Assembly (NCBI GenBank): GCA_023380475.1
Contig: JAMCRD010000006.1
Coordinates: 2,546 to 66,545 of the forward strand
Direction: 5' to 3'
Length of the DNA stretch: 64,000 nucleotides
Source: Patescibacteria group bacterium
Lineage (GTDB): Bacteria > Patescibacteriota > Minisyncoccia > UBA6257 > Colwellbacteraceae
Position 1 is the first letter of the stretch. Each line of letters opens with the position of its first letter. The position numbers and the translations under genes were made by a program. Shown here one piece after another: positions 3,077 to 30,075 of the stretch. The notes below the pieces were generated by a model, which saw only the letters and a list, made by a program, of their open reading frames with translations, did not search any database and was not told the DNA's origin.

Positions 3077-4306
3077 TTACTCTGTCTGCAAATTATTGCT
3101 ACTAAACTTTTTCTCGAAGACCATCAACACAACCACAGCCACGAAGGCTGCTGCTGCCCCTAGATAGAAGGGCGCCGACGGCCCGACCCGATCCCACAAT
3201 AGTCCCGCCAGGAAGCTAGCGACAAGAGCCGCAACACCAGAAGTCATGCCATATATGCCGAACGCTCTGCCGCGATAGTCTGCGCTGACCATGTCAGCCA
3301 ACAGGGCCTTTGCCACACCCACATCGATTGCATAATAGATGCCATACAAACCGTAGAGCAGCCAGATCATATAGGCTTGTGAAGCAAGAGCGAATCCGAG
3401 ATACACCAATCCGTACACAACCCAGCCTATAATGATGGTGGGGATACGTCCTATCTTGTCGGAAAGCGATCCTACGGGGACGGCAAACAGGGCATATATA
3501 AAATTGAATAGAGCTATGACCAGTGGGATGGCAAGCAATGTAATACCAAGATTCCTAGCACGGAGGATGAGAAATGCGTCAGATGAACTACCAAGGGTGA
3601 AAATAATGACTATTGCCATAAACAGATAGAATGACTGAGGGAGAGCCGATCTACCTTTCGCCGTTACGATCCGCTGCGGAGCTGGCTGGTTGTGGCCGAT
3701 TTCTCTGACCTTCGTCACCAGAATCAGCAAGGTGAAGAAAAGCGGGACAGCGGTAAATATAAGGATATAGCGATACAACTGTGCGCTGCCGCTAAGGAGA
3801 TACAATAGGCCGAATAATATGAGCGGCCCGGCGACCGATCCGAATGTGTCGAGCATACGCACTATGCCGAAACTCTTGCCCCGTGTCTCTTTTTCAGATG
3901 AACCAGCGATAAGAACGTCTTTAGGTGGGTCTTTTATGCCCTTACCGGCGCCGTCCAAGAACCGCAGACCAAAAATCGAGGCGCTGGAGGTGAAAAACGC
4001 AAGGAGCGGACGGCTTACCATCGAAAAGAGGTAGCCGATGAATATTATTGGCTTGCGTCTTTTAAACTTATCAGATAAGAGTCCGGATATAACGCTGAAT
4101 ATGTAACTGCCGGCGTCAACCAAGCCTTCGGCGATACCGACAAACGTCTTATCAAAACCAAGGACGGTGGTGTAGTAAATCGGGATGATCGGCGTGAAGA
4201 TGTCCTGGCTTATCCCACCGAACAGGCTAAGCAAGCCGATGAAGAAAGGGTTTTTGTTTTTAGGCTTGGAGCTGGGATTCGCCTGCGCTGCAGGCTGGTT
4301 CTCCAT
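3077..4306 (-). CDS. MFS transporter
   Basis: 409 aa, 12 predicted TM helices; MFS-like motif region around GLLSDKFKRRKP between TM2 and TM3. Confidence 0.75.
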   Translation of the reverse strand: MENQPAAQANPSSKPKNKNPFFIGLLSLFGGISQDIFTPIIPIYYTTVLGFDKTFVGIAEGLVDAGSYIFSVISGLLSDKFKRRKPIIFIGYLFSMVSRPLLAFFTSSASIFGLRFLDGAGKGIKDPPKDVLIAGSSEKETRGKSFGIVRMLDTFGSVAGPLILFGLLYLLSGSAQLYRYILIFTAVPLFFTLLILVTKVREIGHNQPAPQRIVTAKGRSALPQSFYLFMAIVIIFTLGSSSDAFLILRARNLGITLLAIPLVIALFNFIYALFAVPVGSLSDKIGRIPTIIIGWVVYGLVYLGFALASQAYMIWLLYGLYGIYYAIDVGVAKALLADMVSADYRGRAFGIYGMTSGVAALVASFLAGLLWDRVGPSAPFYLGAAAAFVAVVVLMVFEKKFSSNNLQTE

Positions 4307-4566
4307 GTCTTTAGGTTATCCACAATACAGAGAATTGAAAAGACCGTCGGGTGTAGTAACATTTAGGCAGGACTAGTGTTATTAAAAAGTAATCAAAAAA
4401 GCGTGAACCAATTTCGGTTCACAATTGCCAAACACTAATCTTAAATTAGTTAACACCTGCTTCTTCTTTTAAAATAAATACTACTCCTAAAAGAGCATTC
4501 TTCGGAATGCTCTTTCTTATTCTCGCTAAGTTTATTTTTAGCCGATTATCTGCTAGAATCACCGTA

Positions 4567-4743
4567 ATGAAGCTAACGGTTGGTATGGCCATTATTGCTG
4601 CCGTTCTAGGAACGGCTTTCTATTTATACACAGCTTTGACTACCCAAACCTCTACCCGCTATGCCCAAGCTAAGGACGATACATCCAACCCAGGTGCTTC
4701 CGGCCCAGCCGTGCCGCAAGCTTCTCAATATCAAGGTCTCTAA
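4567..4743 (+). CDS. small hypothetical membrane protein
   Basis: Track ORF 4507-4743 trimmed to internal ATG (MKLTVGM...) because the annotated start lies inside a hairpin; single TM helix; immediately upstream of sigma factor gene. Confidence 0.25.
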   Translation: MKLTVGMAIIAAVLGTAFYLYTALTTQTSTRYAQAKDDTSNPGASGPAVPQASQYQGL

Positions 4744-4782
4744 GCCAATCGCGTAACCGACGGCCAGTCGGTTCCGTTCTAC

Positions 4783-5319
4783 ATGTTAGAGGGCGAGCAA
4801 AAACTGGTGGAAAGGGCAAAGAGTGGTGATTCCTCCGCCTTTGGCCTGCTATATGATTACTACTTGCCCAGAATCTACCGGTTCGTCCTTATAAAAGTAG
4901 GCCAGCGTGAGGTGGCGGAGGACATCACTCATCTAGCATTTTTAAAAGCTTGGGAGAATATAGATCGTTACTTCTACCGCGGCTACTCCTTCGGGAGTTG
5001 GCTATATAAGGTGGCAAGGAACACGCTAACCGATCACTATCGTGATCGCAATAGTTCTACCCAAGTACATCTCGACGATATTTTCATCGAGCCAGAGTCA
5101 GACAAACCCCGACCCGGCGAAAACATCGATATAAAGTTAGAGAGCGAAAGGATTATGGCAGCTCTCTTAAAACTTTCAGCGTTGGAACAGGATGTAGTGA
5201 TAATGAGATTAGTGGATGACCTACCAACCAAAGAAGTTGCGGAAGCCGTAGGTAAGAGCGAGGGTGCTATCAAATTGATACAGCACCGCGCCATAAAAAA
5301 GTTAAAAGAGCTTTTGTAA
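4783..5319 (+). CDS. ECF-type RNA polymerase sigma-70 family factor
   Basis: 178 aa; region 2 (YYLPRIYRFV...HLAFLKAWEN) and region 4 HTH (DLPTKEVAEAVGKSEGAIKLIQHRAIKKLKELL). Confidence 0.8.
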   Translation: MLEGEQKLVERAKSGDSSAFGLLYDYYLPRIYRFVLIKVGQREVAEDITHLAFLKAWENIDRYFYRGYSFGSWLYKVARNTLTDHYRDRNSSTQVHLDDIFIEPESDKPRPGENIDIKLESERIMAALLKLSALEQDVVIMRLVDDLPTKEVAEAVGKSEGAIKLIQHRAIKKLKELL

Positions 5320-5321
5320 AA

Positions 5322-5837
5322 ATGAGTCCGGAAGATAAATTAATCACACAATTGAACAATCTCAGAAGGATCAACCCTTCGGAAGATTTTGCTAGCAAGT
5401 TGAGAATTGAACTCCTTTCCACGCCGCGGACGGAAAGGAAGCACTTTTGGAAACTTACCGGCTTCAGGCTGTCTATCAAAGAGAGCTTGGGTTTTGCTGC
5501 TTCAGTTGCAGTAGTAGCAGCCTTAATACTGGCTTTTATAGACCTGACCCCTCAAACAGCTAGCCCGCTAATTGGTACCAACATTCCAGGAGCAGAGAGT
5601 ACAAATATGCTAAATGCCGCAAATGCTGCAGTCAGCGACATAAATATCCACCTCGATGAAGTTAACTCGTTTAGTGCTGCAGCCAAGCAAACCAGCAAAG
5701 CCCTGTCGGACATCAATCCATCCGCAGTAAATACCGGATCGCTTAACAGCGAGAATAACAGCATTAATGCCTCGTCCACCGACAGCAACAGCGCTTCCCA
5801 GATAAACAGCATCCTCGACGAGGTATCGAACAATTAA
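5322..5837 (+). CDS. putative anti-sigma factor (single-pass membrane protein)
   Basis: Starts 3 nt after sigma factor stop; short cytoplasmic N-terminus, one TM (LGFAASVAVVAALILAFIDL), Ser/Asn-rich extracytoplasmic tail; assigned by architecture and position. Confidence 0.4.
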   Translation: MSPEDKLITQLNNLRRINPSEDFASKLRIELLSTPRTERKHFWKLTGFRLSIKESLGFAASVAVVAALILAFIDLTPQTASPLIGTNIPGAESTNMLNAANAAVSDINIHLDEVNSFSAAAKQTSKALSDINPSAVNTGSLNSENNSINASSTDSNSASQINSILDEVSNN

Positions 5838-5838
5838 G

Positions 5839-6711
5839 ATGAACAAGAAGGCTATAAAATATCTAACCGCCGCTGTGCTGATTACAGCCGCCGCAACCTC
5901 AGTTAGCGCGGCTCTAGCTGACACCAACTCGATTAATAACGGCATTACCTCGGTTCAGAACGAGGTTAACAATCTGATCAATATCCGCAGCAGTCAGTCT
6001 ATCTCCGATGGAACCAAGACAGCGCAGGAAATTGCTGCCCAGAAGAAAGTGTTAAAAGGAGTTATAGCTCTGTCTGATAATGAGATATCTACAGCTCAAG
6101 AGAAACTAAATAACCTGCCGACCTTCGATGAAAACAGTGAGGCATATGTGTTGCAGAGCAACTATCTAGCCGAGTTGGCTTCCTATAGCAAATATTTCGC
6201 AGCTGAAGGATTAATTATATCCAACGCAACAACCTCAGACCAACTGCAGGCTGTAGCTGCAGACATAAAAGCTTTCCGCAACTCGGGATACAACAGCGAG
6301 ATATACAATATGATCACGTTCACCCTGCTCTACTACGATGCCGACATAATATCGACAGCCAATAGCCGCCTGAACAGCATCGAGACGGACATAACGAGTC
6401 TCAGCCAACTTCTAGCTAACCAGTCAGCTTTGAACAGTGAATTGAACAAGGCAAGCGGCTTAATCAGCGAAGCTTCAGACCTGCACGACCAGGCCAGCGC
6501 GCTAATACTCCAAAATTCCTCATCCACTGCATCTACGACCGCTACCAGCAGCCTCACGATTGCAATCTCCGGCTCTGCGGCAACTACAACCTCAGCAACC
6601 AGCACGCCCGACCCAAGAAGCATCCTCGAAAAAAGCATCACCAACGTGAAGAACGCCTATCAAATATTCATAGACGTAGCGAACAGCATCAAAACCCAGC
6701 TTAATCCCTAA
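5839..6711 (+). CDS. secreted Ser/Thr/Asn-rich coiled-coil protein
   Basis: Signal peptide MNKKAIKYLTAAVLITAAATSVSAALA; low-complexity Ser/Thr-rich C-terminus; third gene of sigma operon. Confidence 0.5.
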   Translation: MNKKAIKYLTAAVLITAAATSVSAALADTNSINNGITSVQNEVNNLINIRSSQSISDGTKTAQEIAAQKKVLKGVIALSDNEISTAQEKLNNLPTFDENSEAYVLQSNYLAELASYSKYFAAEGLIISNATTSDQLQAVAADIKAFRNSGYNSEIYNMITFTLLYYDADIISTANSRLNSIETDITSLSQLLANQSALNSELNKASGLISEASDLHDQASALILQNSSSTASTTATSSLTIAISGSAATTTSATSTPDPRSILEKSITNVKNAYQIFIDVANSIKTQLNP

Positions 6712-24246: not shown

Positions 24247-24975
24247 ATGGAAAAAACGAAACAGAAAAATATATTGTTCACTGGAGGCAACGGCCTTTTG
24301 GGCAGCGAGTTCCATAAAATACTACCCCATGCTTTATATCCGAGTAGAAAAGAGTTTGATGTCTCGAACATAAAACAAATGAGCAAATACTTAGGAAGCA
24401 AAGCGGTTAAAACAATAATCCACGCTGCTGCATTTACATCGCCGCCAAAAGTAGAAGCAGATCCAGAAGAGGCTATCACCACAAACATCTTGGGAACAGC
24501 GAACGTGGTGAGGCTTTGTCTGAAACGCAAGATAAAATTGGTCTATATTTCAACGGACTACGTTTTCAAGGGAGATAAAGGAAATTACAAGGAGGTAGAT
24601 CCTGTTTATCCGGTAAACAAGTATGCTTGGTCTAAATTGGGAGGCGAATGCGCTGTAAGAATGTACGACAACTCTGTAATAATCCGGACCACCTTCGGCC
24701 CAAACGTATTTCCTTACGAGAAAGCTTTTGCAGATCAGTGGACGAGCAGAGAATCCGTATCGGTTATCGCTGGCATGATACTTAAGGTAGTCAAATCCGG
24801 TTATACCGGCATAATTCACGTCGGCGGTAAAAGAAAAACCGTATATGATTATGCCAAGAGATTAAGTCCAGAGAAACACATAGGTAAACTTTATATAAGA
24901 GAAGTTTCGTTCTCTGTGCCAGCCGACACATCTTTGGATACAAAACTTTTTAGAAACGTTATCCATGATCGATAA
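24247..24975 (+). CDS. dTDP-4-dehydrorhamnose reductase-like (RmlD-like SDR)
   Basis: 242 aa; Rossmann GGNGLLGS, short RmlD-like SDR without extended substrate domain. Confidence 0.55.
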   Translation: MEKTKQKNILFTGGNGLLGSEFHKILPHALYPSRKEFDVSNIKQMSKYLGSKAVKTIIHAAAFTSPPKVEADPEEAITTNILGTANVVRLCLKRKIKLVYISTDYVFKGDKGNYKEVDPVYPVNKYAWSKLGGECAVRMYDNSVIIRTTFGPNVFPYEKAFADQWTSRESVSVIAGMILKVVKSGYTGIIHVGGKRKTVYDYAKRLSPEKHIGKLYIREVSFSVPADTSLDTKLFRNVIHDR

Positions 24976-25954
24976 GCTAAGAATTATGGTTGGAGGTGGC
25001 GCTGGGTATATAGGAAGCATATTAGTCCCGGAGCTATTGAGGCTGGGTCACAAAGTGACAGTTGTGGATTTGCTATGGTTCGGCAACCACTTACCTTCCG
25101 ATACTAAGATCATACAAAAGGATCTGTTCCATCTAGAAAAATCAGATCTAACCAATATAGATATATTTATATTCTTAGCCGGCCTTTCTAACGATCCAAT
25201 GGCAGAATTCAGCCCAGCTAAGAATTTCATATACAATGCGGCGCTACCAGCTTACTTAGCTTTTATAGCCAAACAGGCGGGGGTTAAACGTTACATATAC
25301 GCTTCATCGTGCTCTGTTTATGGTTACACTGATAACAGTTTATATGACGAAACTGCGCCAACCATATCCAGTTATCCCTACGGCATATCGAAGCTGCAAG
25401 GAGAAAAGGGGGTGTTTCAACTACAAGACAAGGACTTTTCTGTAATAGCCCTCAGACAAGGAACTGTAGGTGGCTATAGCCCTAGGATGCGTTTTGATCT
25501 GATAGTTAACACAATGTTTAAGACTGCTATAAAAGACGGGAAGATAACGATAAACAATCCCGCGATATGGAGACCGCTCTGCGACGTAAGAGACACGGCC
25601 GCAGCTTACGTTAAGGCGATACAACTGGATAGCCAAACTTCAGATGTCTTCAATATAGCATTGAGTAACTTCACTGTCGGTGAGATAGGAGAGGCTATTA
25701 AGAAGAAAATTGAAGAACTAACAAAAAAAAGTGTATTGATCGATGTAAAAAATGTTCAAGATTACCGCAACTATAAAGTATCTACAGACAAAGCTGCAAC
25801 AAAACTCGGATTCAAGGCGTCATTCTCAATAGCTGACACTATAGAGGAATTGTTTAGGCACATTGATCAATACCAAGATTTCGAAAAAGACGAGTTTTAC
25901 AACATACGTACCTTTAAGAAGATAGAGGGCGGGGGAGAACGCCAATACATCTAA
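24965..25954 (+). CDS. NAD-dependent epimerase/dehydratase
   Basis: 329 aa; GGGAGYIGS Rossmann, YxxxK (YGISK) catalytic motif. Confidence 0.7.
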   Translation: MIDKLRIMVGGGAGYIGSILVPELLRLGHKVTVVDLLWFGNHLPSDTKIIQKDLFHLEKSDLTNIDIFIFLAGLSNDPMAEFSPAKNFIYNAALPAYLAFIAKQAGVKRYIYASSCSVYGYTDNSLYDETAPTISSYPYGISKLQGEKGVFQLQDKDFSVIALRQGTVGGYSPRMRFDLIVNTMFKTAIKDGKITINNPAIWRPLCDVRDTAAAYVKAIQLDSQTSDVFNIALSNFTVGEIGEAIKKKIEELTKKSVLIDVKNVQDYRNYKVSTDKAATKLGFKASFSIADTIEELFRHIDQYQDFEKDEFYNIRTFKKIEGGGERQYI

Positions 25955-25987
25955 ATAGGCACCATACTAATCTCTTGTATGGTGCCG

Positions 25988-26062
25988 CGGGAGGGAATCG
26001 GACCCCCGACGCCAGCCTCTTCAGGGCTGCGCTCTACCACTGAGCTACCGCGGCGATAACAA
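25988..26062 (-). tRNA. tRNA-Phe(GAA)
   Basis: Minus strand: acceptor GCCGCGG/CCGCGGC, D arm GCTCAGTGGTAGAGC, anticodon loop CTGAAGA, CCA encoded. Confidence 0.8.
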
Positions 26063-26130
26063 AGACATGCTACACAAGATCAATCCATTCTTCAATGAAG
26101 GAGAGCAGATTGCTACATAGACAATAACTA

Positions 26131-27687
26131 TTATAGACTTGTAAAGTTCAACGGACTGCCCCCGTAGTTCAATGGATAGAACAGATCCGTCCTAAGGATA
26201 AAATAGGAGTTCGATTCTCTTCGGGGGCACCAAGTGAGAAATTGCAAATCCCCAGAAGTCGCCGCAGACGGCTGGGCGGCCAGTTCGTATTGTAATTTCG
26301 GGGCAAACGAGAATTCGCGGTTTCGCAAAATATGGTTCGAGCCGATGTTTTTGAGAAATGTTGTCATTGCAATTCCGTTATTCTCTTGAAGCAGTTTTGA
26401 GGCCTGATTGAGTGATAGAACGAACTCTCTCGCTGGTTCGAGCCACGACAGCCCTTTGTCCGCGAAATCGGATATTTTCTCCTGCAATCCGATTTTCCGA
26501 GAAAGCAGCTGTTCCTTCTTCGCGGCGTATTCGGTCTGGAACAGGGCGTCGGCAAGATAGGCATCGAGGAGTTTGGACAGCTTCGCCTCCACGCGGGCAA
26601 CTTCGTTTTTCAGAGTATCAATCTGCGCTCGCGCCTCCTCCCTTGCCTTGTCCCGTTCCGCCTCTAAGAGAGCTAACGCTTTCTCGGTATCATCGTCCGA
26701 CAAAGAAATTTTTTGCAGGAACGATTGTATATGCTCCGTCACTATCTCCTCGCGGAGATAGTGCTTTTCTTGGCACACGCCGCCTTTCTTTGTGCAACGA
26801 TAATAAGCATGGCCTTTCTGCATTTCGGCGGTGATGGAGCTTCCGCACGAGGCGCATTTCATAAGGCCGAGAAAAGCGAAATCATGCCGCTTCGTCTCAA
26901 TCGTCTTGCCGCGCTTTGCGCGCACCTCTTGGCAGAGGTCAAAAAGTTTCTTCGGGACAAGAGGTTCGTGGCGTCCCTCGTACAGTTCTCCGCGATACCG
27001 CATAAGGCCGTAATAGAAGGGGTTGGTTAAAATCTTCTGGATATTGCTAAGCGCAATCTCCTTGCCGAGGTTGCCTTTCAATCCTTGCTCTCGGCACCAA
27101 TCTACGAGGTCATGGAGCGTATAGCTTCCTATGGCGTAAAGCGCGAACAGCTTGCGGACAAGCGGGGCTTTCACGGGGTCAACATCAATCCCTCGCGTCC
27201 TCGGGTTGTTCAAGTAGCCAATCGGTGCCCAGCTCGGCCATACGCCGTTCCGTATCTTCTGCCGCAAGCCACGCTTTACGTTCTCCCGCAGGTTGTCCAC
27301 GAAGTATTTTGACTGCCCGAAGGCAATGTTGAGCATAAAGAGGCCTTGTGGTGTCGGCTCAAACCAGAACGTAGGGAACTTGAGGGACTTAATCAGGCCT
27401 CGGTCAATCATGTGGATGACCCGCCCGCCGTCCACGGAATTGCGGGCGAGGCGATCTGGGTGCCACGAGAGGATGCCCTGTGCCTTGCCGCGTTCCACGA
27501 ATGACAACATTTCAGCGAACTTAATACGGCCGGGTTCTTTGGCGGTCTTTGCCTCCTCAAAGGAAGCGACAATTTCAAGTTTTTCTTTGGCGGCAAATTC
27601 CCGAAGCTCCACCAGTTGAGCTTCTATGGACAGCACCTGCCCGTCGTCTTCTTCCGTTGATTTGCGAGCGTAGATTATGTATTTCAT
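26131..27687 (-). CDS. large serine recombinase (resolvase catalytic domain, recombinase domain, zinc ribbon, coiled coil)
   Basis: N-terminal YARKST..Q catalytic serine motif and ILSWHPDRLARN; CASCGS...CTKKGGVC zinc ribbon; coiled-coil region; last 28 codons are antisense of tRNA-Arg, so true stop is likely upstream. Confidence 0.85.
   Translation of the reverse strand: MKYIIYARKSTEEDDGQVLSIEAQLVELREFAAKEKLEIVASFEEAKTAKEPGRIKFAEMLSFVERGKAQGILSWHPDRLARNSVDGGRVIHMIDRGLIKSLKFPTFWFEPTPQGLFMLNIAFGQSKYFVDNLRENVKRGLRQKIRNGVWPSWAPIGYLNNPRTRGIDVDPVKAPLVRKLFALYAIGSYTLHDLVDWCREQGLKGNLGKEIALSNIQKILTNPFYYGLMRYRGELYEGRHEPLVPKKLFDLCQEVRAKRGKTIETKRHDFAFLGLMKCASCGSSITAEMQKGHAYYRCTKKGGVCQEKHYLREEIVTEHIQSFLQKISLSDDDTEKALALLEAERDKAREEARAQIDTLKNEVARVEAKLSKLLDAYLADALFQTEYAAKKEQLLSRKIGLQEKISDFADKGLSWLEPAREFVLSLNQASKLLQENNGIAMTTFLKNIGSNHILRNREFSFAPKLQYELAAQPSAATSGDLQFLTWCPRRESNSYFILRTDLFYPLNYGGSPLNFTSL
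26148..26222 (+). tRNA. tRNA-Arg(CCT)
   Basis: Acceptor GCCCCCG/CGGGGGC, anticodon loop GTCCTAA (stem has one G-A mismatch), T loop AGTTCGATTCT, CCA encoded; its last 6 nt (GCACCA) begin repeat X. Confidence 0.65.
26217..26315. repeat. inverted repeat X (99 bp), left copy
   Basis: Exact reverse complement of 27714-27812; spans tRNA-Arg 3' end and encodes residues RNREF...LTWC of recombinase ORF. Confidence 0.9.
26316..26339. repeat. inverted repeat Y (24 bp), left copy
   Basis: Exact reverse complement of 27923-27946; contiguous with X on the left, but separated from X' by Z on the right. Confidence 0.8.
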
Positions 27688-27691
27688 CGTG

Positions 27692-27711
27692 TTAAAAATT
27701 TTCTTTTCCCA
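27692..27711. repeat. 20-bp inverted repeat, left copy (ttaaaaattttcttttccca)
   Basis: Exact reverse complement of 27947-27966; forms the leader 4 nt upstream of the recombinase start codon. Confidence 0.85.
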
Positions 27712-27713
27712 GT

Positions 27714-27812
27714 CGAAACCGCGAATTCTCGTTTGCCCCGAAATTACAATACGAACTGGCCGCCCAGCCGTCTGCGGCGACTTCTGGGGATTTGCAATTT
27801 CTCACTTGGTGC
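27714..27812. repeat. inverted repeat X' (99 bp), right copy
   Basis: Exact reverse complement of 26217-26315; in-frame on + strand it re-encodes the same 33-aa peptide. Confidence 0.9.
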
Positions 27813-27897
27813 AGGACAATTGAGATAGCTCGAACGGTTTTTGACACCCCCACCGAGGCTAAATCTGAAACGCCCGACGTGGCGGAGCCGCACCGAT
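27809..27897. repeat. inverted repeat Z (89 bp)
   Basis: Reverse complement of 28659-28747 with one mismatch; overlaps X' by 4 nt (GTGC). Confidence 0.85.
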
Positions 27898-27922
27898 AAA
27901 GACCGCCAAAGAACCCGTTCCT

Positions 27923-27946
27923 AACATCGGCTCGAACCATATTTTG
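27923..27946. repeat. inverted repeat Y' (24 bp)
   Basis: Exact reverse complement of 26316-26339. Confidence 0.8.
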
Positions 27947-27966
27947 TGGGAAAAGAAAATTTTTAA
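27947..27966. repeat. 20-bp inverted repeat, right copy (tgggaaaagaaaatttttaa)
   Basis: Forms the leader 4 nt upstream of ATG 27971 of the small AT-rich gene; identical to the recombinase leader. Confidence 0.85.
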
Positions 27967-27970
27967 TCAT

Positions 27971-28141
27971 ATGAAAAAAGCATTATTAATTATTTGTGAG
28001 TTTATAGCGACGGTAGTTATTTTCTTATTGATTTATAAATTTTTTAATTTATCAACAGCTTTACCAATATGGATTGTAATCGTCATCATTTTGATAAAAA
28101 CGACAATTAGCCACGACGGTAAAGACAAAGACGGGGCATAG
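27971..28141 (+). CDS. small two-TM membrane protein (56 aa)
   Basis: ATG at 27971 (track ORF begins at a TTG inside Y'); very AT-rich coding sequence unlike the surrounding genome. Confidence 0.4.
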   Translation: MKKALLIICEFIATVVIFLLIYKFFNLSTALPIWIVIVIILIKTTISHDGKDKDGA

Positions 28142-28203
28142 GATTTTGAATATTGGTCAATCTGTTCCGCACCAATAAAGACACAAAGAAATAATTTTTA
28201 ACC

Positions 28204-28626
28204 ATGAAAAGATTAAAAAGTTTACTAGTGGTTTGGCTAGAAATTTTGGTCGGCGGCCTGATTTTAATTTTTGTGCCAGACATCAGATGGTTTCTGTTTT
28301 ATCTTTTAGTGATTGTTCTTATGACTTCGGTTATGCGAGCGGATTATCTGCGAAAGGTCGTCAGGGTGTTCCAAGTGGAGAATGGGGTTAATCTCGCTAG
28401 CATAGCCAAGAAACTCAACATATCGGAAGCAGAGATTCAGAAGTCCAGAGATGACCTTAGCGACAGCTTGCTGGACGACCAAAGAAAATCTTTGCATAAG
28501 GATATGGAAGAGCTTGGAATTTCCAGCCCCGAACGCTTTTACAGAAATCCAGTGGACGGCCTATCAGATACCGAAAGGGGTAAGAAATTCATGGATAAAG
28601 TTTTTAAGGACTTCGGGGATAACTAA
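28204..28626 (+). CDS. membrane protein with HTH-like segment
   Basis: 140 aa; two N-terminal TM helices, then VNLASIAKKLNISEAEIQKS resembling a helix-turn-helix; AT-rich. Confidence 0.4.
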   Translation: MKRLKSLLVVWLEILVGGLILIFVPDIRWFLFYLLVIVLMTSVMRADYLRKVVRVFQVENGVNLASIAKKLNISEAEIQKSRDDLSDSLLDDQRKSLHKDMEELGISSPERFYRNPVDGLSDTERGKKFMDKVFKDFGDN

Positions 28627-28658
28627 AATTTGCCGCCAAAGAAAAACTTGAAATTGTC

Positions 28659-28747
28659 ATCGGTGCGGCTCCGCCGCGTCGGGCGTTTCAGATTTAGCCT
28701 CGGTGGGGGTGTCAAAAACCGTTCGAGCTATCTCAATTGTCCTGCAC
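28659..28747. repeat. inverted repeat Z' (89 bp)
   Basis: Reverse complement of 27809-27897 with one mismatch; begins 33 nt after stop of 28204-28626. Confidence 0.85.
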
Positions 28748-28782
28748 TACTAATAATCTGCTAATTGAGCATATTATTAGTA
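28748..28782. repeat. 10-bp perfect palindrome TACTAATAAT/ATTATTAGTA with 15-nt spacer
   Basis: Seen directly; sits between Z' and tRNA-Arg(TCT). Confidence 0.6.
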
Positions 28783-28786
28783 GACC

Positions 28787-28858
28787 GTCCCCATAGTTCA
28801 ACGGATAGAACATCTCCCTTCTAAGGAGATGATTGAGGTTCGATTCCTCATGGGGACA
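28787..28858 (+). tRNA. tRNA-Arg(TCT)
   Basis: Acceptor GTCCCCA/TGGGGAC, anticodon stem TCTCC/GGAGA with loop CTTCTAA, T loop GGTTCGATTCC. Confidence 0.8.
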
Positions 28859-28859
28859 C

Positions 28860-28930
28860 CGGGCTGTAGTGTAATGGTAGCACGAGTCTTTTGGGAAGAT
28901 TTAGTCCGAGTTCGAATCTCGGCAGCCCGA
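28860..28930 (+). tRNA. tRNA-Pro(TGG)
   Basis: Acceptor CGGGCTG/CAGCCCG, anticodon loop TTTGGGA with G37, T loop AGTTCGAATCT; starts 2 nt after tRNA-Arg. Confidence 0.75.
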
Positions 28931-28954
28931 CAAAATAAAGTAGACCCATCTAGG

Positions 28955-28990
28955 TTAATAAAAGCCCACCTTTATCTATTTGGTGGGCTT
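28955..28990 (-). terminator. rho-independent terminator of the Cys-rich protein gene
   Basis: Minus-strand hairpin AAGCCCACC-loop-GGTGGGCTT followed by UUUUAUUAA. Confidence 0.5.
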
Positions 28991-28995
28991 ACTGC

Positions 28996-29331
28996 CTATG
29001 CTTCTTGAACGCCGTGAATGTCGGCTGACCTTTCGAGTATAACCCCAGGCAATTTCTTTGAGGTAATTACAGTCTTGGTCTGACCTTCACTAGACGTTAA
29101 CACTTCGCCTTTTAGCCCCAGATATATACCTTCTGCACAGCCCCAGCAAAACAGATCGCCGCAATCATAACCCTGAGCACCCCTATGTTGAGTGTGGTAG
29201 CTAAAACGGTTCCCTGACCTGCTGGTGTGGTAGCTGCACATGTTGATACCACAACCGCTGCACCTATCGAGGGCCCTATTATCACAACCCTTAACCTGGC
29301 ATTTGCCGTCTCTTGGCTCTGGAAGTGACAT
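28996..29331 (-). CDS. cysteine-rich small protein (zinc-ribbon-like)
   Basis: 111 aa with 12 Cys in CxxC-rich clusters (CQVKGC, CSGCGINMC, CGDLFCWGC). Confidence 0.4.
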   Translation of the reverse strand: MSLPEPRDGKCQVKGCDNRALDRCSGCGINMCSYHTSRSGNRFSYHTQHRGAQGYDCGDLFCWGCAEGIYLGLKGEVLTSSEGQTKTVITSKKLPGVILERSADIHGVQEA

Positions 29332-29445
29332 ATGCGATATGTATTTAAAAAAACAGGAAGATTGCCCGTGAAGGCAACCCGCTCAATTTTTCTTGAACTG
29401 GATTACCTCGACTAGTAATCTTACCTAGAAAATACTATAAAATTG

Positions 29446-30075
29446 CTATTTTGTCAATGAGTCAAATTGATTCATCAACGATAAATACTGCTTATTTAGG
29501 GAGTTTACCGATTGCGCATCGCTATTCAGTTGATCGACTATCTTGTTTAATTCTGCATTAAGAGATGCGGTGCTGGTAGCTCCGCCAGTCTGACTTATGT
29601 ACCCCACCTTAAGCTGATCCAGCAACTTGTATATTAGATCGCTGTAATCAACTAGATTTTCTATTATCTGGTACTCCTTGCCTATTGCTTGGACTCCGAT
29701 TTGTTCCGCTGATTCCGGTCTTATTTGATACAGGTCGTTGGCCATCGTGCCAAGTTGGGTCGACAGGATTGAAGCGTTATCACGCTCCTGGTTATTGCTA
29801 TTTATTTCCTGGATTGCGATATCCAGGGCTTTGTTGTAATCACCGGCGTTGTAGGCCGTACTTATATCGTTAAGGTTAGTGATTGAGGTGTCCGCTAAGC
29901 TGACGATGGCGTCGGAGGTTTGTGCAGCCTGAGCCCTGGTAGTTGTGAACTCCTTAGGCACGTAAGGCATACTGTTGTTTAGCGCCTCTGCGCCGTAAAT
30001 TATCCCTATCACTAACAAGATGGCTAAAACCAGTATTATTACTGCGTTCCATCGAGCCGAAGAGCTGTAATACAT
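29446..30075 (-). CDS. membrane-anchored coiled-coil protein
   Basis: 209 aa; N-terminal TM (AVIILVLAILLVIGIIYG), remainder helical and Asn/Gln/Ser-rich. Confidence 0.4.
   Translation of the reverse strand: MYYSSSARWNAVIILVLAILLVIGIIYGAEALNNSMPYVPKEFTTTRAQAAQTSDAIVSLADTSITNLNDISTAYNAGDYNKALDIAIQEINSNNQERDNASILSTQLGTMANDLYQIRPESAEQIGVQAIGKEYQIIENLVDYSDLIYKLLDQLKVGYISQTGGATSTASLNAELNKIVDQLNSDAQSVNSLNKQYLSLMNQFDSLTK

Follow-up and report, generated by a model that had tools for sequence, protein, structure and literature searches.

Between two pairs of tRNA genes in the window (the whole 64-kb stretch of Patescibacteria DNA analysed here, from contig JAMCRD010000006.1 of assembly GCA_023380475.1, to which all positions refer) lie a gene for a serine recombinase, two small ORFs and an interlocking series of inverted repeats. 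The tRNA genes on the left are tRNA-Phe (25980-26054, minus strand) and tRNA-Arg(CCT) (26158-26232, plus strand), and those on the right are tRNA-Arg(TCT) (28787-28860) and tRNA-Pro (28860-28931), both on the plus strand and with base 28860 in common. This is the arrangement that had been described in the initial annotation, and a scan of nt 25900-29000 with the Rfam covariance models at E <= 1 returned the same four tRNAs and no other RNA family. The evidence given below indicates that nt 26227-28747 (2,521 bp) probably represent a compact integrated element, which consists of two modules, each with long inverted arms, and which owes its position at a tRNA 3' end to a divergent large serine recombinase (LSR).

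The recombinase ORF (26131-27687, minus strand) is 518 codons long and carries Resolvase, Recombinase and Zn_ribbon_recom domains. The resolvase catalytic domain (PF00239, E = 5e-21) covers residues 4-150, with the YxRxS motif present as IIYARKSTEEDD and the serine at position 10, and is followed towards the C-terminus by PF07508 (E = 1e-15) and PF13408 (E = 1e-7). The protein is an integrase-type LSR and not a small invertase; its relatives of known structure in the PDB, the A118 integrase and SprA/YokA, gave weak and distant matches (E ~1e-4). The family-conserved part of the gene is limited to nt 26227-27687 (minus strand), or 487 codons with a protein end of ...TWC, and the last ~31 codons of the longer frame are read-through over the antisense tRNA-Arg(CCT).

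Homologues of the recombinase number more than 7,500. The 120 best that were listed are 69-91% identical, and the named ones come mostly from Patescibacteria; the exact protein has no database record. Homologue C-termini are conserved as far as ...F(P/L)xWC and then pass into divergent strings such as RQESNL... or GRDSNPH..., which are antisense translations of tRNA T-arms. The WC itself is encoded by TGGTGC, the reverse complement of GCACCA. In a second assembly of the source organism (GCA_023476555.1, contig JAMCXC010000021.1) the gene table shows only a 73-aa ORF, and no gene over the 518-codon frame, so that the recombinase appears to be unannotated in that record.

Seven inverted pairs were found in the element. 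The two longest form its arms: a/a' (26227-26325 and 27714-27812; 99 nt, 100% identical) are the terminal and the internal inverted copy of the P' arm, and j/j' (27809-27897 and 28659-28747; 89 nt, 99%) are the internal and the terminal copy of the P arm. The shorter pairs are f/f' (27568-27599 and 28627-28658; 32 nt, 100%), h/h' (27682-27711 and 27947-27976; 30 nt, 87%), b/b' (26326-26349 and 27923-27946; 24 nt, 100%), d/d' (27531-27550 and 27898-27917; 20 nt, 100%) and E1'/E1 (26355-26368 and 27500-27513; 14 nt, 100%), the last being complementary segments that both lie within the gene. Much of this sequence is coding. The minus strand of arm a encodes recombinase codons 455-487 (RNREFSFAPKLQYELAAQPSAATSGDLQFLTWC), and segments b, E1', E1, d and f equal recombinase nt 1339-1362, ~1320-1333, ~175-188, 138-157 and 89-120, respectively. 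Segment h comprises the recombinase start codon and 5' leader, and its partner h' likewise provides cargo ORF1 with leader and start. Along the plus strand, the left tRNA is followed by a, b, E1', E1 and d, then by f after 17 nt, h after another 82 nt and a' after 2 nt more; j and d' come next, b' follows after 5 nt, and h', ORF1, ORF2, f', j', a hairpin and the next tRNA complete the series, with the remainder of the recombinase gene on either side of E1'. The pieces abut, nt 26227-28747 being a mosaic and nt 27714-27976 wholly a patchwork of reverse-complement pieces.

Four of the pairs (99, 89, 24 and 20 nt) had been recognised before and were recovered by the repeat search, including the start of the 99-nt repeat at the GCACCA of tRNA-Arg(CCT); three further pairs (32, 30 and 14 nt) and the contiguity of the pieces had been missed. 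Chance does not account for repeats of this length, as had been argued: in 100 shuffles of nt 25000-30000 the longest perfect inverted repeat averaged 12.9 nt and never exceeded 18 nt, against the 99 nt observed. Neither arm sequence, a or j, occurs again within the 64 kb.

Lengths of 20, 32 and 99 nt resemble the k or k-1 of common assemblers, and perfect arms are also what would arise if the contig were chimeric or folded back, or if a de Bruijn graph had been joined wrongly across an inverted repeat. The chance that the structure is such an artefact is nevertheless negligible. Contigs that show this layout with other arm sequences number well over 100; they come from NCBI assemblies and from ENA and JGI metagenomes, and MEGAHIT, SPAdes-style and other assemblies are represented among them (judged by contig names). 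The two assemblies of the source organism agree base for base, GCA_023476555.1 matching the window at 100% over 12,990 nt. An assembly artefact is ruled out by this recurrence in independent data.

Attachment sites and target tRNA genes

Three junctions within the element share the core GCAC. At the left border (26223-26236) the sequence reads GGGG-GCAC-CAAGTG, with the core at 26227-26230, over positions 71-74 of the tRNA. The core is repeated at 27809-27812 (as GTGC), where the reverse complement of nt 27803-27818 reads TGTCCT-GCAC-CAAGTG, and again at the end of arm j' (28744-28747), where the right border (28738-28753) reads TGTCCT-GCAC-TACTAA. Taken as attachment sites, these would be exactly the attL, attP and attR expected for an attB of GGGG-GCAC-TACTAA, and the match therefore suggests that the element spans nt 26227-28747 and supplies the CCA of the tRNA. 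The internal site would be a complete attP (27714-27897, minus strand, J'-GCAC-A), situated between the divergent recombinase and cargo genes. The T-arm and acceptor 3' strand of tRNA-Arg(CCT), the presumed integration target, would form the B half of attL, and the tRNA 3' end is repeated at the far border, as GCAC. Before insertion the target between tRNA-Arg(CCT) and tRNA-Arg(TCT) is predicted to have read GGGGGCAC followed directly by TACTAATAATC. A 16-bp hairpin (CTACTAATAATCTGCT / AGCATATTATTAGTAG) at 28747-28783 occupies the original tRNA-to-tRNA spacer and is the B' side of the target, outside the element.

A sugar epimerase gene lies beside the locus (24965-25954). Its nearest homologues are at most 70% identical and belong to many unrelated phyla, and it may have been acquired horizontally. 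As the databases hold no homologue of this epimerase above 70% identity, the organism has no near relative there, and an empty site for comparison is not available for this locus.

Related loci were compared across 80 examples from species-representative genomes, together with contigs found by way of individual homologues (labels such as L049 below refer to these loci). In every locus three junctions share a common core: tRNA-core-A, J'-core-A (internal, on the recombinase strand) and J'-core-flank. The core always lies over tRNA positions 71-74 and fits the particular tRNA, being GCAC, GAGC or CCAC and ranging from 4 to 8 nt, up to GTCCACCA. An antisense tRNA follows directly after the recombinase in 72 of the 93 copies with a visible 3' flank. 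Target tRNAs are of at least 13 kinds (Arg, Gly, Ile, Leu, Tyr, Lys, Phe, Asn, Ala, Met, Val, Glu and Gln). The idea that a palindromic central dinucleotide (GC) has cost the site its polarity fits the GCAC of the window and fails with the GAGC, CCAC and GTCCACCA cores, and was rejected.

Of 33 attP sites, 26 have a motif resembling a tRNA T-loop (GYTCV; GTTCG(A/G)) in the J' arm, 23 nt away from the core, and in 27 of 33 attL sites the genuine T-loop motif stands 18 nt away. Within the window, the GTTCG of the tRNA at 26209 is 18 nt before the core, and GTTCGAGC at 28721 is 23 nt before it. In the 2013 structural model of Rutherford and Van Duyne, the attP half-site of serine integrases is reportedly about 5 bp longer than the attB half-site. 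Because the motif is shifted 5 bp outward in attP relative to attB, just as that model is said to predict, there is good evidence that the T-arm and acceptor of the tRNA would be the B half-site read by the recombinase, which the J' arm mimics. Of the possibilities raised initially, that of a tRNA-targeting integrative element is supported by these data, namely the att junctions, the T-loop mimic in the arm and the 72 of 93 copies that abut a tRNA.

Family layout and the cargo module

The canonical layout was found at fixed positions in ~45 of ~60 complete Patescibacteria loci, with recombinases 62-93% identical. In the orientation of the recombinase the order is J, F, cargo, H, B, D, J', A, H', recombinase, antisense tRNA, and independent assemblies place the set J, F, H, B, D, A and E1 at fixed coordinates relative to the recombinase start. 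Within the gene these are F' at nt 89-120, D' at 138-157, E1 at 173-190, E1' at 1318-1335, B' at 1335-1361 and A' at 1361-1461. About 10% of the top recombinase homologues run from A' into J-type sequence and not into tRNA. The species-representative genome collection holds at least 550 copies of the family, and some groundwater metagenomes (the Hainich and the JGI Ga02095xx/Ga02100xx sets) are rich in it. A prophage origin was rejected, the family being nearly absent from viral contigs. No description of the element family or of its layout was found in the literature searched, the one candidate preprint being unrelated, and the earlier judgement that the configuration is not a standard one is upheld to that extent. 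The family is a very common and abundant mobile element of Patescibacteria, and is apparently undescribed.

In the window, the backbone of the cargo module (27898-27976, plus strand) is d', 5 nt, b' and h', all of which are sense fragments of the recombinase (nt 138-157, nt 1339-1362 and the 5' leader). It leads into cargo ORF1 (27971-28141, plus strand; 56 aa, hydrophobic) and ORF2 (28204-28626, plus strand; 140 aa, with a hydrophobic N-terminal stretch by eye), neither of which matches a Pfam family; f' (28627-28658, plus strand) is the downstream border of the slot. The exact ORF2 protein is on record solely from the two assemblies of the source organism. Read in the sense of the cargo, the module is J, D', B', H', cargo, F', J', and that of the recombinase is A, H', codons 1-29, F', 17 nt, D', the body from E1 to E1', B' and A'. 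The four common pieces keep an identical circular order in the two modules, and the cargo slot of L049 retains, inverted and at 86% identity, an 85-nt stretch that corresponds to the recombinase leader plus the first 50 nt of the gene. Because of the conserved circular order and the remnant in L049, the cargo module is, as judged from its sequence, a circularly permuted, internally deleted and inverted derivative of the recombinase module. It looks as if the E1-to-E1' body was deleted, the A hairpin skipped and the first 29 codons swapped for cargo. The short repeats thus exist because the backbone of one module copies the other.

The cargo slot is invariably bounded by H' and F', and its contents vary widely: HIT, methyltransferase, NAD(P)HX dehydratase, HTH, DUF218, bPH_2, SRPBCC and HNH proteins were found, as well as many small proteins with hydrophobic N-terminal stretches (judged by eye) and no Pfam match. 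The possibility that inversion makes in-frame fusion proteins, suggested by the continuous frame through d', b', h' and ORF1 in the window and in L002, was rejected as the frame is lost in elements of the L009 type.

Two kinds of smaller rearrangement were seen. Three metagenome contigs (L093, L203 and L208) hold recombinase-less derivatives, in which the cargo start and H (ending CCCCCAAAATT) are fused to the distal ~65 nt of A', followed by the antisense tRNA. The distal A' carries the same 11-mer as the end of H, and these derivatives look like the products of deletion between 11-nt direct repeats, which left the cargo gene fixed beside the tRNA. In six other loci (L098, L107, L119, L125, L134 and L142) a GC-rich hairpin of ~18 nt (CCTCCAGAGGCGGGCAGG or a variant) is found inside segment B, perhaps as a very small insertion element that was acquired secondarily.

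On the plus strand, a sigma70-like site (TTGCAA at 27792-27797, a 17-nt spacer and GACAAT at 27815-27820) extends across the core of the internal attP and faces the cargo. Of 50 related loci, 17 have a site in exactly this position that passes a 9/12 matching rule; the copy in the window, at 8/12, falls below that threshold. The internal attP, lying between the divergent genes, would thus be placed to serve as a promoter or operator for the cargo, and probably does so.

Orientation of the modules and self-complementarity

The initial annotation had also likened the locus to invertase and shufflon systems. In a programmed inversion system of this kind the recombinase would flip the repeat-bounded segments and thereby switch itself or the cargo, for example by turning the promoter-bearing attP between h and h'. 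Several features agree with this. Repeats of 20-37 nt have the usual length of invertase sites, the two start codons are directly preceded by h and h', which give both genes a shared leader, the promoter-like site is within the h-to-h' segment, and the other relative orientation of the modules occurs in L083 and L084. Many contigs also end near f' and d', at recombinase residues 23-57, though not exactly at the repeat borders. The assembled data do not bear the idea out, however, and programmed inversion is a quite improbable explanation. A single recombinase normally uses one type of site, and a shufflon has one common site sequence, whereas the seven pairs (A, J, F, H, B, D and E1) are seven unrelated sequences, of which only F and D share CCGCCAAAGAA. 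Invertases of the Hin/Gin type have ~190 aa and a C-terminal helix-turn-helix, but the protein found here is of the integrase type, with ~487 aa and the recombinase and zinc-ribbon domains of LSRs. Flipping at f, d, b or E1 would moreover disrupt the recombinase gene.

The orientation data point the same way. Among 123 matches to cargo-start/H sequence in metagenome contigs, none was in the H-flipped state, and an invertible h/h' promoter was rejected on this count. The recombinase module was in the opposite orientation, with a sense tRNA upstream, in only 1 of 86 copies, and with it falls the notion that a flip at the A arms acts as an on/off switch by way of tRNA read-through. Orientation is essentially fixed among assembled copies, and a phase-variation switch is hence not supported; minority orientations would have to be judged from reads.

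Other arrangements of the modules do occur. In L084 recombinase and cargo are on the same strand, so that the short repeats are direct; L083 is an array of cargo, recombinase, cargo and recombinase, with a 275-nt inverted repeat (92%) of H-B-D-J'-A. In L070 (nt 4800-6600) the recombinase module lies between two inverted tRNA-Ala sequences and its arms are just 81% identical, which is the expected product of recombination between the internal attP and a second tRNA gene, inverting a segment of chromosome. These arrangements show that the modules do recombine at their arms. Alternating modules with full attP-type junctions between them extend over nt 1-4377 of L083 and nt 1-2567 of L084. L087 (nt 4140-4955) is a decaying copy, with arms 93% identical and A' joined to a degenerate J-like sequence and not to a tRNA; an ORF that looks like an IS110-type transposase comes next.

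Between elements the A arms differ widely, evolving as the coding sequence of the last 33 codons, yet within each element the upstream non-coding copy is ~100% identical to the coding one. The short segments behave in the same way. Columns with at least two bases, each matched in both copies, make up 15 of 20 in D, 10 of 27 in B, 13 of 18 in E1 and 10 of 29 in F, and just 4-10% of the cells in the short-segment alignment are mismatched. Both E1 and E1' are coding, and their co-variation alters amino acids (AMTTFL in some elements, ELPTFL in others). Third codon positions of the recombinase, which normally have an entropy of 1.2-1.5 bits, drop to 0.2-0.6 bits at F', nt 730-745, 973-985, 1243-1255 and from E1' to B', and synonymous sites at segment f are nearly frozen across the family.

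All of this could be a historical accident: a single ancient template-switch inverted duplication, with RecA-mediated conversion of the long arms, short pieces that persist through their overlap with coding sequence and the shared leader, and complementarity that has no function. The repeat boundaries are identical family-wide, as from one founding event, one module, that of the cargo, can be shown to be a degenerate copy of the other, mismatches between arms show no G-T bias, and decaying copies with arms 81-93% identical exist. This account is doubtful all the same. Non-coding copies of only 20-27 nt track synonymous changes in recombinases 62-75% identical to that of the window, and such pieces are too short for efficient RecA conversion and their tracking too precise for drift. 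It also has to contend with the co-variation of E1 and E1', where both copies are coding and amino acids change with them, with the frozen synonymous sites at the arms, and with an excess of folding stability.

The last of these was seen in the interior of the gene. Across 57 loci, five conserved antiparallel complementary runs were found in the recombinase ORF, against two A-rich ones in a mirror-repeat control. In recombinase coordinates they pair nt 175-183 with 1325-1333, 289-297 with 1279-1287, 718-726 with 1253-1261, 735-749 with 972-986 and 988-1000 with 1238-1250. Nesting of the five is perfect, and the three-way junction made by the last three has linkers of just 7, 0 and 2 nt. The pairs between modules are connected equally tightly, in three-way junctions closed by (B, D, E1), by (J, F, D) and by (A, H, B). 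Folding z-scores for recombinase nt 700-1275 relative to shuffles were -5.66 in L013 and -3.57 in the window, compared with -0.35 and -1.84 for two host genes. RNAalifold recovered part of the helices in this region, with few compensatory changes; covariation being low, support for the internal helices comes from conservation, connectivity and folding energy. Folding of the single strand is thus supported as an observation, and a functional role for it is a proposal. That the runs are repeated protein-binding motifs was rejected, as the five arm pairs are five sequences among which only CGAGCC recurs. An A/T-rich motif, AAAGAAA(A/T)(A/T)TTTT, is present family-wide and in both orientations at recombinase nt 99-111 (within F'), 735-749 and 972-986 and in leader H, and explains both hits of the mirror-repeat control.

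Self-complementarity of this kind might act in RNA. A read-through or circle-junction leader (F, H, B, D, J', A) could pair with the recombinase mRNA and block or destabilise it, holding expression at a very low level in the manner of the fold-back inhibition of IS10. The contiguous H-B-D-J'-A is antisense to the 5' leader, to codons 46-52 and 446-454 and to the last 33 codons, no convincing recombinase promoter was found in the usual orientation, and nested helices do lie within the ORF. Control at this level is unlikely nonetheless, since ribosomes would unwind long-range helices in a translated ORF, the natural cargo mRNA bears sense and not antisense copies, and the full set of pairings is pseudoknotted. 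In addition, the arm mismatches (110 G-T, 128 A-C and 181 other) reveal no excess compatible with G-U pairing on either strand. The absence of such a bias argues against ordinary selection for RNA structure, and is compatible with strict complementarity of DNA or with copying between arms. For the internal attP and the self-complementarity together, the possibilities are single-strand folding, gene conversion or regulation.

Proposed life cycle and relation to known systems

The element is thus likely to consist of a recombinase module flanked by the 99-bp A arms (the P' arm, which is also the last 33 codons) and a cargo module flanked by the 89-bp J arms (the P arm). These stand head-to-head in the order attL (tRNA-A), recombinase, inverted attP (A'-J), cargo and attR (J'-flank). 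Integration would proceed by attP x attB recombination catalysed by the LSR, and excision by attL x attR, which is predicted to release a 2.5-kb circle with two inverted attP sites and arcs of 1,388 bp (recombinase) and 761 bp. Insertion would use only the attP that adjoins the 3' end of the recombinase gene. Recombination would keep the long arms identical, and pairing in a single-stranded form would do so for the short pieces. The exact complementarity may be maintained because the element, or its recombinase region, pairs with itself when single-stranded, more likely as DNA than as RNA, by gene conversion, or by both.

Several observations weigh against this interpretation. A circle with two identical attP sites is expected to insert in both orientations, and only one is seen. 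Neither an empty target site nor a free circle was observed for this organism, which lacks a close database relative, and none of the contigs was recognised as circular. There is no evident recombination directionality factor and, since the cargo varies, no conserved second gene. The 5-bp half-site rule is drawn from the literature, and the promoter role of the internal attP from a consensus match that may equally be a recombinase-binding motif (P' recognition). As regards folding, the pseudoknotted pairings cannot all form simultaneously, there is little covariation in most of the internal helices, and in the clade to which the window belongs two of them are weak.

A more speculative extension, which we regard as unlikely, is a folded single-stranded DNA stage with the internal attP as a splint for the two ends. 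Once paired to it, the terminal A' and J would make up a duplex attP whose nick falls exactly at the crossover core, and precise circularisation could then start from any donor fragment; the remaining complementary segments would compact the strand. Mismatch correction in the intramolecular duplexes would keep even 20-nt segments identical. Entry of the strand might occur, e.g., through uptake by natural competence, the machinery for which has been reported from at least some Patescibacteria. Such a splint would explain why the attP is inverted, why the long repeats overlap at the core and why pieces of 20 nt are homogenised.

The element has ties to the large serine integrases of phages and integrative conjugative elements (phiC31, Bxb1, A118/LI, SPbeta SprA, TP901-1), the Ccr of SCCmec and TnpX/TndX. 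It resembles these in its three-domain protein, the short shared core, an attP half-site longer than that of attB (the 5-bp shift) and a recombinase gene that adjoins the attachment site. Unlike them, it targets the extreme 3' end of many different tRNA genes, is only 2.5 kb in size with a single cassette and no evident directionality factor, has attP arms of 90-100 bp that are each present twice as a perfect inverted repeat, and carries an inverted attP that stays resident in the integrated element, with a P' arm that is recombinase coding sequence. Targeting of tRNA 3' ends is usually associated with tyrosine integrases and not with serine ones. Genomic islands and small integrative elements that use tyrosine integrases to enter tRNA genes, including the tycheposons of Prochlorococcus, share with the element the insertion at a tRNA 3' end, the rebuilding of that end (here CCA), short direct repeats of it at the borders and variable cargo, but they lack long inverted arms, an internal attP and a cassette backbone derived from the recombinase, and their recombinase is of another class.

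Hin, Gin, Cin, Pin/Min, the R64 shufflon and the Mpi system of Bacteroides likewise combine a recombinase with short perfect inverted repeats that bracket segments, and in the element a promoter-like segment between two genes is enclosed by one of the repeat pairs. In those systems the repeats have one site in common and both orientations coexist, whereas the element has seven sequences and a fixed orientation in assembled copies; invertases are proteins of ~190 aa with a C-terminal helix-turn-helix, and the shufflon Rci is a tyrosine recombinase, in contrast to the LSR found here. The predicted circle, with two long inverted repeats that hold the recombinase sites and separate its two arcs, recalls the yeast 2-micron plasmid (FLP/FRT). 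FLP, however, is a tyrosine recombinase and the plasmid replicates and is never integrated, while the element has no origin or partition genes; its copies were always found integrated or in arrays, and the circle is only predicted, from attL x attR.

In integron attC sites and the attP hairpin of CTX-phi (XerCD), inverted halves of a site can pair in one strand and rebuild a duplex site. The terminal A' and J arms would similarly pair with the internal J'-A and rebuild attP with a nick at the core, although tyrosine recombinases exchange one pair of strands and serine recombinases cut four strands of duplex, and the single-stranded state of the element is itself inferred. Like miniature inverted-repeat transposable elements, the cargo module retains only terminal pieces of its parent, but it is fused to the parent, inverted and permuted beside it, carries a gene and is kept identical at the retained pieces. 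As in the res site of Tn3, a recombination site lies between divergent genes.

In the literature searched, no description was found of a serine integrase at tRNA 3' ends, of a T-arm mimic in attP, of perfect arms of 90-100 bp that are present twice, of a resident inverted attP, of a cassette backbone derived from the recombinase, or of co-varying self-complementarity that reaches into the recombinase ORF. There is a real chance that part of the life cycle of the element is new. The internal attP and the co-varying complementarity are not explained by the standard cycle of a serine integrase, and are a lead to a new step in it, for instance folding of the single strand, self-splinting or an unusual form of regulation; if the splint were real, no earlier element with a serine recombinase would have had a structured single-stranded stage. 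The slot for a single gene between two constant short segments suggests cassette exchange, integron-like in outcome. On the practical side, the elements break short-read assemblies of Patescibacteria and adjoin tRNA genes, which is relevant to the curation of metagenome-assembled genomes. If confirmed, the recombinases would read the near-universal T-arm and acceptor end of tRNAs, with matched pairs of attP and attB already computed, and would be of interest as tools for genome integration. Also if confirmed, the family would define a major class of mobile element in the candidate phyla radiation, a group whose mobile elements are little characterised.

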